From Gammaproteobacteria bacterium (GTDB lineage Bacteria; Pseudomonadota; Gammaproteobacteria; JBCCGL01): a stretch of DNA of 64,000 nt. Shown here piece after piece: positions 50,181 to 58,384 of the stretch. Location of the stretch: positions 1,728,001-1,792,000 of the forward strand of contig OZ255836.1 of assembly GCA_965277715.1 (NCBI GenBank), in the 5' to 3' direction. The notes beneath the pieces are model-generated. The model was not told where the DNA came from and ran no database searches. It was given only the letters and a program-made list of their open reading frames with translations. Position numbers and translations under genes: made by a program. The stretch's first letter is position 1; each line of letters opens with the position of its first letter.

Positions 50181-50849
50181 CTAAAGCAGGCCGAACACCA
50201 GAGTTTTTAAAGACGCAATCAGCTCCATTTCCACAATCGTATTGCGCCCCCTTTTGTGCATGCAAGAAAGCAATGAGTCTTGTTCCACTGTACTTTCCAA
50301 GTGCTGAATGTACTTTCTATATTTTCCCGTGTAAATATGGGAGATTTTATTTCGAATTTTTTCATCCGCAAAATCACTACTATAAATATCATCTAAAACA
50401 TCCTTGACATCGTTTAAATAAAAATAGTTAACTACGCCTTTCCCTATATCTACTCCCGGATAAATAGCTTCATACAAAACTTCAACATTAGAATTTTCTT
50501 TCAATACTTCTTTGTATATCTCATTAAAGAGTTCAATATATTGAACTCTTTCCAAGCATTGCATCGCATAGACAACAATTTTTTTCTCATCCAAATTTAG
50601 ATTGGGATTTTGTATTGCATTAACTGCGTAATCAAAGAAAACACTAGGTTTTCTATATATATGCGAGAATTTTTCATCATTTATTAAAACCGTGTTAGAT
50701 GAATAATCAAAAAATCTATAAAAATTAATTTTAAGAGCGATATCACCGATAGCCTCTATAAATGATGATTCTTCCAATAGAGTGCTCTGTTCGTTTTGAT
50801 CAATACATGATGCCAATAAAAAGATCAACCCAAATAGAATCCTTTTCAT
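50181..50849 (-). CDS. Putative lipoprotein immunity protein
   Basis: ATG 50849 overlaps the Rhs TGA; MKRILFGLIFLLASC lipobox; very AT-rich. Confidence 0.75.
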   Translation of the reverse strand: MKRILFGLIFLLASCIDQNEQSTLLEESSFIEAIGDIALKINFYRFFDYSSNTVLINDEKFSHIYRKPSVFFDYAVNAIQNPNLNLDEKKIVVYAMQCLERVQYIELFNEIYKEVLKENSNVEVLYEAIYPGVDIGKGVVNYFYLNDVKDVLDDIYSSDFADEKIRNKISHIYTGKYRKYIQHLESTVEQDSLLSCMHKRGRNTIVEMELIASLKTLVFGLL

Positions 50850-53800
50850 TGTAGACCTACCCAACGTCTATACACTATGGATCCAGATGCATTGGCGGGC
50901 TGATATGAACCCATACCTAATCTAACCATAAGGTGAGTAGTAGAATACCCCACACCGCCGTAGTTAGCAGCAATTACTTGTCTCCCAAACCCTCCTACAT
51001 AAACACCAACATGACCAGAGCCTTCTGTCCTTGCAAAAGCTGCGATATCCCCCCTCTGGGGAGAGTCTACAACTTCAAAACCTGGAATGCTCCTTGTAGC
51101 ATCTGCCCAATAATTTGCCCTAATTGGCCACTTCCCTCCCTCATACATTGGAGCTGTTGCTCCAGCCGTATTTAGCACATTTTTTACAAAACAATTACAT
51201 TTCCAATCTCCTGGGCCAAAGTTATCAACAGTTCCTGATTTTGCATAATTTGTATCACCTAAATAATCTTCTGCTACCGTTGCTATTTTTTCTCTGACCC
51301 TTTCAATTTCTAATTGCCTCTCTGCATTGTGCCAGTGGGTGAAGGCAGAGGAAGCTGCCCCATTTGCAAACTTCCCCCCACCAAGCTTAGATGCCGTCCC
51401 CCCAATCACCGCAGCAGTAACCGTCCGATGAATTTTATAATTAGCGGACTTCCCCCAAATATCAGAATTCAACGACTTTGCCCCTGCAGCAAAGGCCGAC
51501 GAAACAAACCCATAACCAAACTTTCCGCCTTGCGCAACCGCCAAAGTACCACCAACCACACCATTAGCAGCTACATTCAAGGCATACTGACCTGCACCAG
51601 CATTAATGTCAAAGGTTGAACCAACCCAGCTACTGGCTTGTTGGCCAAGATAATACGTTATCCCCGCTACAGCGGCACCTCTAGCGGCTTCCGAGGGCGA
51701 AGCCCCATACGCTCTGGCTATATCGTATTGCGCGTGCGCATAACACAGCGCTGCAAAAGGGCCACAAAATGCTGAGCCAATGGTCGCCGCGAGATTGGCA
51801 ATTTTTGGACCTACAGCCCGAATAACGGCTCTTGTAGCTTTCTTCACAAGTTGATGATGCAAAGCCGCCGACGGCCCTAATACAAGACCCGCAAGTCCCC
51901 CGAATGCTTTTTTAAGCAATCCCTTTAAAATATACCCACTAGGATCCGTATACTTCATCGGATTATTCTGCACATAGCTATAGCGACTATAGCTTTGGCT
52001 CATGCCCGCCGCCTGTATATATGGATCGGCGCTGATAAACCGCGCCAGGCTTGCATCGTATACCCGCCCATTCATATGAATCAGGCCCACTTCTTCAATC
52101 GATTCGTGGTCGGTATAAGCCCGGGTGGTAAACAGTAAACGCATGCTGTACAGCGACCCCGCACCTTGCCAGTCAAAATGGCGTTGTTTGCCCCAGGCAT
52201 CGTAACTGCGCCGATCAACCACTTGACCGTCAGCATCCGTCATCGTGTCGATACTGCCGAGCGCGTCTTTGTGCAGATAGTGGGTTTTAACACCCTCCTT
52301 GCTGGAAACACTGTGGCTGGCGACCCGATTGCCTGCAGCATAGATGTAGTGTTGATGCCGGGTGTGTTGACCGTTGTCAGTGACCTGTTTCTCGTACAAT
52401 CCCCCTACGTACCAGGTGGTATCACCTGTGTGATTGATCTTTTTATAGCGCGCCCGGTCAAGGCCATAACTAAAACGGGCCGATTTGCCGTTTTTACTGA
52501 TATGGATCGGTTTGTTAAAACTGTTCCAGGTGAAACGGCGCCCATCGCCTTCGAGCATATTGCCGTTGGCGTCGTAGTGGTATTGATGATTACCCGCGCT
52601 GCTAACAGCATGTGGCCGACCACTGGTGTATTGGTAGTGACCCACGTCAGATTTGTAGGTGATATTGCCGTAAACGTCATAATTCTGGGTTTGCGCAATA
52701 TCGAGACCACCACCGATAAAGCGCTCACTGACCAAGTGCGTGGCGGTCAGCCGGTCTAAGCGGTCGTACTCGAAGGTTTCGCGGATGTCGTTAACCAGAT
52801 CATCGCGCAATGTGACATTATTGTAGGCGTCGTATTGGTATTCGATATGCCGTATCGCGGTGCTGGCAAGCAGGCCGCTATGGATAACTTGCAACTGACC
52901 AGTGGCGGTATTGTAGCTGTAGTCGTTAACGATACCGTTACCATACGATTCTGCAGTAATGCGCCCGGACGCATCGGCATCAAGCGCCTGCCAGTAGGTG
53001 ATATGTTGGGTATCAGCCGTTTGTGCTTGATAGCTTTCAGCACCGTTTTCAAGGCTGCGTGTGTAATGGAAGCTTTGATCTGCCGCTGCCAGCGTTTGCT
53101 CGGCTAATACGGTGATTTGTTCGATCAATTGGGTGTAACTGCCGATATGCTGATCGAGTAACGCAATGACATTCTCAAGCTCAATAACGGTATTGTTGAG
53201 GTGGCCTAAAAATGCCGGTGAGAGGGTTTGGTTTTGCCCAATACTCGCCGTTAGCTTTGTTTGTTCGTCAGAACTAAGGTTCTGGGTAGGTGTTACTCCT
53301 TGGCCATTCTCGACCGGTATGAAAATACTTATACCATTGACATTAACTGGTGCCAGGGTAATTACATGGGGTTTTTCTATCTTGGCATTATTTATACTTT
53401 CTGTTAGCAAACTTTTCTGGCTATTCAGATCGGCTTGCAAGTCATCGCTTAAATGCGGTACAGGCACAGGGTCTCTGGTTGGCAGAACCAATTGACTGCG
53501 CCAGCCAGGTACGAAAATGGTGATATCTCCAACACTAATCGGTACCTGTACGCTCACCAAGGGTTGACTGGCAGCTTCTTTCTCAGCTTCTTTAAGGTCA
53601 GCCTGATATTTCGCCTCTGCACGGGTTTGTATGGCAAGTAATGCGCGGTAGTCGTCGAGTTTGGCGCGATACCGCTGCCCAATGCGCCGCAAGGTGTGCG
53701 CACGGGTTTCGTAGCTTTCAGCCAGGTCTGTCGCGGCCAGAATTAACGGGGCTAATTGGCTGAGATCACCGGTTTCTGCCCGGAGACGACTGCCACGCAC

Positions 53801-57922: not shown

Positions 57923-57934
57923 TAGGTTCTCTCC

Positions 57935-58384
57935 TTATTCCACAGGGGTTTTATTGATATGGTCGCGGATAGCTTGCAGGCGCTGCACCGTTGACGATGG
58001 AGTTTCCTCTGTTGGTTCAGTTATATTTTGATCCGATGGATTAATACCCTGGCTTTGTAACTGTTGATCAAATTTACGCAGTGTTTGATCAAGCTGAGCA
58101 ATTGTTGCCTCTGTTTGCTCAATTTCGGTGGGGAGTGATGTTTGTGTATTGAGGAGTGCTTGTAGTTTTTTTGCTGACGGGGATTGTTCGTGATCGATTG
58201 GTTCGTCAGCACCACTAGGCATTATTGCAGTGGTAGGAGGGGGGTTTTCTACGTCATTTACATAGGCGTCTGTAACCGATGCAATTTCCGTACTATCGGA
58301 CGGGATAACGGTCATACCCACAACCCATATAAGCCCAGCGACTGCTAGACCAAAAACAAGTGTTACCACCTTTTTAATAACCAT
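57935..58384 (-). CDS. Membrane-anchored coiled-coil hypothetical protein
   Basis: AAGGA RBS; single N-terminal TM; heptad IEQTEATIAQLDQTLRKFDQQLQ; ends 12 bp before the Rhs start. Confidence 0.75.
   Translation of the reverse strand: MVIKKVVTLVFGLAVAGLIWVVGMTVIPSDSTEIASVTDAYVNDVENPPPTTAIMPSGADEPIDHEQSPSAKKLQALLNTQTSLPTEIEQTEATIAQLDQTLRKFDQQLQSQGINPSDQNITEPTEETPSSTVQRLQAIRDHINKTPVE

Follow-up and report, generated by a model that had tools for sequence, protein, structure and literature searches.

Comparative genomics has catalogued several export pathways of polymorphic toxins, one of which is the 'TcdB/TcaC' class of Zhang et al. (2012, Biol Direct 7:18, PMC3482391), defined in their Table 1 by a signal peptide, an SpvB domain, an integrin-like beta-propeller and RHS repeats; the same paper, which rests on comparative genomics only, gives DUF637 as a pre-toxin domain of the type V secretion system (T5SS). 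Later toxin surveys take SpvB as a standard trafficking anchor, and tcB-tcC fusion genes were mentioned by Song et al. (2021), who left them out of their study. A further group of shell-forming toxins, the bacterial teneurin-like proteins, has been described as rare; these proteins combine Sec signals and YD shells with immunity genes, and no delivery machine is obvious for them (Raoelijaona et al. 2026, Nat Commun 17:2753, PMC13018210). Here we analyse a three-gene Rhs operon in a 64,000-nucleotide stretch of contig OZ255836.1 (assembly GCA_965277715.1, a Gammaproteobacteria bacterium), hereafter the window. Judged by its sequence, the large Rhs protein of this operon is a regular member of the 'TcdB/TcaC' polymorphic-toxin class, having a signal-like N-terminus (by eye), SpvB plus a propeller, and RHS repeats with an exchanged C-terminal tip. 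We consider it likely that the operon encodes an antibacterial toxin of that class, a TcB-TcC fusion-type Rhs, with a proposed pathway of export, cleavage and immunity.

The genes of the operon and the domains of the Rhs protein (P0001) are laid out as follows.

57935-58384, minus strand: partner gene (product P0002), 149 amino acids, membrane anchor plus coiled coil
50846-57922, minus strand: Rhs polymorphic toxin of the TcB-TcC fusion type, 2358 amino acids, whole open reading frame (ORF) including the stop codon, one intact frame
57845-57922, minus strand: signal-peptide-like N-terminus of the Rhs, residues 1-26, cleavage predicted between ATA and VE
57305-57805, minus strand: SpvB/TcaC N-terminal domain, residues 40-206 (Pfam, E 3.7e-14)
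55800-56998, minus strand: FG-GAP propeller, seven near-identical 58-residue blades, each with DVNGDGLVD
55502-55909, minus strand: TcdB_toxin_midN region, residues 672-807 (Pfam, E 3.6e-19)
51935-55501, minus strand: RHS/YD shell, residues 808-1996, with RHS_repeat matches
52958-53770, minus strand: insertion within the shell, helical, residues about 1385-1655, containing two short motifs that resemble beta-hairpins
51935-52204, minus strand: Rhs-associated core with an autoprotease-type motif ending DPSGY, residues 1907-1996 (TIGR03696, E 1.8e-15)
51263-51934, minus strand: hydrophobic, Ala/Gly-rich pre-toxin module, DUF637-like, residues 1997-2220, motifs GGKFGYGF and GGGKFANGA
50849-51262, minus strand: predicted NlpC/P60-CHAP peptidoglycan hydrolase tip, residues 2221-2358, with Cys2242 and His2304
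50181-50849, minus strand: probable immunity lipoprotein, with a lipobox; its start overlaps the Rhs stop

According to the ORF list and translations, the operon consists of three tightly spaced minus-strand ORFs with insertion sequence (IS) elements at both flanks. Twelve nucleotides separate the partner stop codon from the Rhs ATG, which has AAGGAG ahead of it. The third ORF spans in full 50181-50864 (minus strand; 227 amino acids, with a TTG start at 50864), its likely start being the ATG at 50849, which forms an ATGA overlap with the Rhs stop, and not the TTG. The original prediction, made from the letters of the window, had described just such an operon of a transmembrane coiled-coil protein, a 2358-residue Rhs and a lipoprotein, and had assigned to the Rhs a signal-peptide-like start, a repeat propeller, a helical insertion, an autoprotease motif, a hydrophobic linker and an enzymatic tip; the ORFs lie where it had placed them, and each of these parts could be located in the Rhs.

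Domains were called by Pfam and NCBIfam scans of the three operon proteins. The Rhs begins with MTSLLTR, containing one basic residue, followed by a 16-residue hydrophobic stretch and PATA directly ahead of VE, which by eye fits an n/h/c signal-peptide layout and the AxA rule. The predicted mature end coincides with the start of the conserved SpvB alignment in the family consensus, and a crude hydrophobicity rule finds a comparable N-terminal segment just before the SpvB start in 98 of the 120 top homologs; several of the other 22 resemble truncated gene calls. YenB and SpvB chains match residues 31-94 in a sequence search of solved structures. The propeller corresponds at the DNA level to a 174-nt tandem repeat (6.9 copies, 96% matches), with six stretches of the Rhs matching FG-GAP_3 in Pfam (E 3.1e-19). 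The core carries the motif GRVYDAS...ISADP...YTDPSGY at residues 1952-1997, from which we infer, and only infer, autocleavage after DPSGY. No PAAR, VgrG or Eag family matched any of the three operon proteins in Pfam or NCBIfam, in agreement with the predicted lack of such features.

An AlphaFold2 model of the shell (residues 1100-1996, 26 sequences aligned) has a mean predicted local distance difference test score (pLDDT) of 76.7 and comprises two confident beta-shell halves, between which residues about 1387-1636 form long helices and a short hairpin. This helical insertion was found in 42 of 120 homologs, and the consensus of 26 family members has a shorter helical segment. By template modelling score the nearest structures to the model are TcdB2-TccC3 (TMq 0.58-0.60) and TcC chains (TMt 0.68-0.70), followed by type VI secretion system (T6SS) Rhs shells, teneurins, a bacterial teneurin-like protein (9ifo) and mosquito SGS1. 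The window Rhs shares SpvB, propeller, TcdB_midN, RHS shell and core motif with the BC subunits of toxin complex (Tc) toxins, such as TcdB2-TccC3 and YenB-YenC, but it is one chain and not two, and it differs further in its signal-like N-terminus, seven near-identical blades, helical shell insertion and, as argued below, antibacterial cargo with an immunity-type neighbour. With T6SS Rhs effectors (RhsA, RhsP, Tse5, Tse15) it has in common the RHS shell, the Rhs core and a C-terminal toxin predicted to be encapsulated, whereas it has a SpvB/propeller cap instead of an N-terminal plug and, unlike them, starts with a signal-like segment. Bacterial teneurin-like proteins resemble it in their Sec-signal YD shells, immunity genes and lack of an obvious delivery machine; their N-terminal parts, however, are described as TTR, TIP, FN-plug and NHL, in contrast to SpvB and FG-GAP (Pfam) here, and they are described as rare, whereas the family of the window Rhs is very large.

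The cargo, modelled as the 362 residues after the core motif from 42 aligned sequences (pLDDT 83.5), falls into two parts. In the C-terminal part, the model of residues 2205-2358 adopts a papain-like NlpC/P60 fold with pLDDT above 90 in the tip, and Pfam gives a CHAP match at residues 2238-2308 (29.9 bits against a cut-off of 26). The tip aligns with 8er5_B at Z 12.0 (root-mean-square deviation 3.1 over 117 residues) and with the T6SS amidase Tae3 at Z 11.1; Foldseek with the whole cargo model returned LytE, MepS, Tae3 and Tse1 (best E 2.3e-3), and the cargo sequence found nothing meaningful among solved structures. Cys2242 and His2304 lie within the conserved KCNxF and SGHVG motifs of the alignment. 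The fold and this Cys-His pair, both shared with Tae3, Tse1 and the NlpC/P60 endopeptidases LytE and MepS, support in the model the reading of the tip as an antibacterial peptidoglycan hydrolase, in line with the antibacterial toxin originally proposed and with the lipoprotein gene that follows; the window enzyme differs from those proteins in being the C-terminal cargo of an Rhs shell behind a hydrophobic module.

This module, 21% Ala and 13% Gly, is predicted to be helical with pLDDT of about 80. It is present in 70 of the 120 homologs, the CHAP tip in only one. An exhaustive search for relatives of the module yielded 3396 representatives at E<=0.001; among the best 150 of these, each of the 16 long proteins carries an SpvB-type region at its N-terminus, 72 are short proteins with the Rhs core motif ahead of the module, and the remaining 59 mostly begin inside or just before it. 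The homologous stretch of one homolog, P0035 (BLAST E 1.7e-9 to P0001), matches DUF637 (PF04830) at 28.3 bits against a cut-off of 26.6 (E 1.7e-6). The likeness to the CdiA pre-toxin region (DUF637/PT637) extends to the position of the module directly ahead of a variable toxin, but here it follows an Rhs core and not filamentous haemagglutinin repeats.

The Rhs belongs to a large and polymorphic family. Searching with residues 1-1100 gave 3151 homologs at E<=0.001 among 8000 candidates scored, of which the 120 best, 1448-3412 amino acids long, carry SpvB, FG-GAP and RHS annotations. A profile of 14 close homologs confirmed at least 552 loci in species-representative genomes, with hosts that include Hahella, Cellvibrionaceae, Exilibacterium, Endobugula, symbionts of tubeworms and mussels, numerous species of Vibrio, Photobacterium and Microbulbifer, and also Campylobacterota. 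Two paralogs on the same 4.29-Mb contig (P0004 and P0005) are about 100% identical to P0001 over residues 700-2000 and diverge straight after DPSGY, P0004 ending in an unassigned tip and P0005 in a Peptidase_M23 tip. P0005 also differs at residues about 200-700, with about 30% identity in the propeller block. Two blocks, the toxin tip and the propeller, vary at a constant shell, and variation of the propeller is what a recognition part would be expected to show. The blades of the window Rhs are 96% alike in DNA and those of P0005 in the same place have diverged, which suggests that the blades were recently homogenised or expanded. In the 2.8-Mb chromosome of one relative (G007), three SpvB-Rhs loci (L058, L080, L094) appear to be split over several ORFs, stop codons falling within the SpvB matches, and may represent decay or assembly error.

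The original prediction had put the locus forward as a candidate undescribed system. For the architecture this does not hold: it is that of the 'TcdB/TcaC' class, its homologs run into the thousands, surveys use SpvB as an anchor, and tcB-tcC fusions have been noted before. What survives is narrower, namely that how the 'TcdB/TcaC' class works has apparently been shown by nobody; the conserved partner, the DUF637-like module and the small-secreted-protein arrays appear to be undescribed parts of it. The window Rhs shares with the class of Zhang et al. the signal peptide (predicted by eye), SpvB, propeller, RHS repeats, variable C-terminal toxin and wide phyletic spread; the available portion of that paper gives no DUF637 for 'TcdB/TcaC' and names no membrane-anchored partner, whereas the window locus has both a DUF637-like module and a partner. 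A literature search, with subscription journals and supplements outside its scope, found neither secretion or delivery experiments on signal-peptide SpvB-Rhs fusions nor a description of the membrane-anchored partner.

The partner is a bitopic protein of 149 amino acids, in which a membrane anchor at the N-terminus is followed by a linker of low complexity, the motif SPSAKKLQALL and a C-terminal LxxRLxxI helix. By the positive-inside rule, read from the sequence, its anchor is predicted to sit in the inner membrane and its C-terminal part to face the periplasm. The family layout, from 29 aligned sequences, is an anchor, a variable linker, [FY]PxPxx[KQ]LQxL, a helix and a C-terminal LxxRLxx[IL], and this layout is seen in Cellvibrionaceae, Hahella, Exilibacterium, Vibrio, Photobacterium, Aliivibrio, Psychromonas, tubeworm symbionts, a mussel-symbiont relative and Campylobacterota. 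An iterated search from P0002 placed relatives directly upstream of an Rhs gene, on the same strand, in 11 loci. A structural rule (a same-strand ORF of 90-230 amino acids, ending <=450 nt from the Rhs start, with an N-terminal hydrophobic helix) was satisfied in 27 of 67 full-length loci, four of which (L008, L024, L026, L075) look unrelated. A profile search of five genomes returned six partner matches, all six directly upstream of an SpvB-Rhs gene; these six were in the profile, so that the information lies in there being no other copies in those five genomes, which hold three further SpvB matches with no partner. The transmembrane protein, to which the original prediction had given a possible helping role, is by these searches a conserved neighbour. 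A large protein collection contains 41 partner clusters, all annotated 'hypothetical' and none with a Pfam domain. On these sequence grounds the partner appears to be a conserved, unannotated and apparently undescribed family, found in the five-genome search only directly upstream of SpvB-Rhs genes.

A partner paralog 95% identical to P0002 lies on the same contig, and the partner was therefore duplicated along with the Rhs. The partner does not strictly co-occur with the helical insertion or the hydrophobic module, in either direction. When residues 28-900 of the Rhs were paired with residues 40-149 of the partner in complex prediction, the ipSAE was 0.00 in both runs, which is no evidence on binding in either direction. 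The layout of the partner also prompted the idea that it might be spanin- or holin-like; the operon contains no endolysin and no second spanin gene.

At the other end of the operon, the lipoprotein read from the ATG at 50849 begins MKRILFGLIFLLAS followed directly by C, a lipobox (LLAS, then C). Its gene position, overlapping the Rhs stop codon, together with this lipobox suggests that it is probably the immunity protein.

In the pathway that we propose, Sec would export the Rhs precursor, which would fold in the periplasm into a YD cocoon capped by SpvB and the propeller. The core aspartyl protease would then cut after DPSGY, leaving inside a cargo of roughly 360 residues made up of the DUF637-like hydrophobic pre-toxin module and the NlpC/P60-CHAP hydrolase. 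The downstream lipoprotein would serve as a periplasm-facing immunity protein, and the upstream bitopic coiled-coil partner as a dedicated accessory factor for export, envelope retention or assembly. Recognition of a competitor cell would most likely fall to the variable block of the propeller, and the hydrophobic module would be the likeliest means by which the hydrolase passes through the target's outer membrane and reaches the cell wall. Of all this, the present data show which domains make up the Rhs, the family it belongs to, the polymorphism and the fold of its tip, and the conservation of partner and module; Sec export, autocleavage, immunity and the passage from the producer into a target are steps that we only infer.

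A number of points weigh against this pathway. The exit of a folded 260-kDa shell from a Gram-negative producer is left unexplained by it. The signal call is a manual reading of the N-terminus combined with the crude hydrophobicity rule on homologs, not SignalP; the helices of the shell insertion mostly fall below pLDDT 70 and belong to a low-confidence part of the model; and the helical part of the cargo has no structural match beyond the level expected of helical proteins. The window Rhs itself gives no DUF637 match at E<=1, making the DUF637 link transitive only, and the module is named DUF637-like, not DUF637, because of this. The partner has no Pfam match above cut-off and belongs to no recognisable family; the lipoprotein has no Pfam or NCBIfam family and no named relative, with unnamed clusters only in the protein-collection search. 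About half of the family loci have no partner, which is thus not essential to the class as a whole. Four of the five closest relatives' genomes, moreover, encode a T6SS.

This last point favours an explanation in which the Rhs is a T6SS effector, its hydrophobic N-terminus being a chaperone-handled membrane segment and the protein being loaded on a VgrG encoded elsewhere, as does the fact that, among solved structures, T6SS Rhs proteins match the shell best in sequence. The Rhs and its operon, however, hold no PAAR, VgrG or Eag family, the AxA site stands directly ahead of the conserved SpvB start, and by the positive-inside rule the partner points into the periplasm. We searched for delivery machinery in ten genomes encoding relatives, five distant and five close, a test that is indirect for the strain of the window. 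The sheath gene VipB was present in one of the five distant and four of the five close genomes and had no match in the other five of the ten, among them the complete chromosomes G001, G002 and G010; where G006 and G007 are concerned, a distance of >=100 kb separates the sheath genes from the Rhs loci. YD-repeat toxin genes have likewise been reported in mussel-symbiont genomes with no T6SS gene at all (Sayavedra et al. 2015, eLife), and we regard a T6SS effector as improbable. Still less probable, in our judgement, is the BC part of a classical Tc toxin that docks on a TcA encoded elsewhere and acts on a eukaryotic target. The SpvB, propeller and TcdB_midN domains and the closeness of the shell model to TcdB2-TccC3 would fit it, and one relative's genome (G003) has a TcA_TcB_BD (PF18276) gene on another contig, a match that also serves as the positive control of the search. 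That domain nonetheless had no match in nine of the ten genomes (present in one of five distant, none of five close), and the window, as had been noted from the start, contains no TcA-sized ORF besides the Rhs; a cell-wall hydrolase cargo followed by a lipoprotein gene is an antibacterial toxin-immunity pattern, and the signal-like N-terminus contrasts with Tc toxins, which are reported to exit by lysis (PMC10847048). Secretin_N matched in five of five genomes, but it is generic (type II secretion system, pili) and not specific. Taken at the level of the family, and for relatives only, these tests favour a family that as a whole would need neither TcA nor T6SS, as the original prediction had supposed from the missing adaptors.

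The Rhs could also be displayed on the surface as a contact-dependent toxin like CdiA, WapA or the bacterial teneurin-like proteins, with the partner tethering or presenting the shell, an arrangement to which we give some, though clearly less than even, credence. The partner is membrane-anchored, DUF637-like modules are otherwise typical of CdiA-type proteins, and the teneurin-like proteins are described as Sec-targeted, surface-attached shell toxins with delivery unsolved (PMC13018210); on the other hand, a reading of the translation reveals no recognisable outer-membrane anchor or lipobox in the Rhs, and the predicted anchor of the partner is in the inner, not the outer, membrane. Surface display is a sub-variant of the proposed export-cleavage-immunity pathway and does not contradict it, and the present data do not separate release from display. 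We hold it to be very unlikely that the locus is a decaying mobile remnant, now functionless, IS-flanked and with recently homogenised repeats: IS genes stand on both sides and GC content is lower at the operon ends than in the housekeeping part of the window, yet the 7-kb reading frame is unbroken and the starts are coupled, one genome has three paralogs whose frames are intact and whose tips differ, and the partner has its 95%-identical paralog. Going beyond the proposed class-level pathway, the partner, SpvB shell, DUF637-like module and small secreted arrays might together form a dedicated Sec-dependent pathway working with neither TcA nor T6SS, an idea that we put forward tentatively and think doubtful as it stands. 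The inner-membrane partner would then pass the shell to the envelope or the outside, the propeller would recognise the target, and the module, freed from the opened shell, would cross the target outer membrane in the role that TcA has in Tc toxins or FHA-2/PT in CdiA.

Beyond the operon, the following features of the window bear on its context.

44182-45744, minus strand: divergent Lnt-like gene, link to the operon uncertain
45930-46271, plus strand: small secreted protein, 113 amino acids, of a family forming arrays beside SpvB-Rhs genes elsewhere
46617-49435, plus strand: transposase genes between the operon and the lower genes, integrase-type and AAA-ATPase-type from reading the translations
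58544-58571, minus strand: best sigma-70-like site upstream of the partner, TTAAAA-16-TATAAT with TG, a candidate only
58545-61318, minus strand: transposase ORFs of IS type lying upstream of the operon, 58545-59465 as two pieces and 59688-61318, from translations read

Arrays of the small secreted proteins accompany SpvB-Rhs genes in other genomes. The family is about 110 amino acids long, with a signal peptide, one conserved Cys, an S-x-LLAA helix and no Pfam family, and is represented at 20 of 104 loci, frequently by 4-11 copies in an array (for example L067:13992-16997, L071:478-5550 and L032:13483-15050). Across four whole genomes, 32 of 43 matches stand no more than about 10 kb away from an SpvB-Rhs gene, and there are none in a fifth genome. 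At two Cellvibrionaceae-type loci (L029:5542-5925, L032:5508-5891) a single member sits between the partner and Rhs genes. An immunity-like or a delivery-related role are both possibilities for this family.

The nearby Lnt had been suggested as a possible helper, which fared unevenly. An Lnt gene does stand directly upstream of partner and Rhs in 3 of 106 loci, all of one tubeworm-symbiont group (L037:3761-5338, L053:3770-5347, L092:3783-5360), and these genomes have two Lnt copies, the Rhs-adjacent one being a divergent paralog. The window copy, however, is 4.4 kb from the operon, split off by the opposite-strand transposase genes at 46617-49435, and is 24-32% identical to canonical and Rhs-adjacent copies alike, so that it cannot be assigned to either; the link is weak.

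Transposase-type ORFs, some apparently split, surround the operon (46617-49435, 58545-61318 and 62896-63312), and the Rhs island may be mobile or an insertion hotspot. Promoter-like and terminator-like sites are no commoner in the region than in shuffled sequence. The rest of the window consists of housekeeping genes (nuo, ftsH, glmM, carB, cysI-like and others; 20 larger ORFs scanned), and AT skew is unusually high, 0.17-0.28, at window positions 1-6000, over the nuo membrane-subunit genes.

Within its class the Rhs is unremarkable. For the large Rhs/YD shell toxins, which marine bacteria, symbionts and vibrios encode by the thousand, no route out of the producer or into a target cell is known, and the same gap has been stated for the symbiont YD-repeat toxins (eLife 2015) and for the teneurin-like proteins (Nat Commun 2026). 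The locus described here offers three handles on that problem: a linked partner gene, a conserved hydrophobic pre-toxin module seen only behind Rhs cores and, among the long matches, always in SpvB-type Rhs proteins, and a propeller that varies between otherwise identical paralogs.

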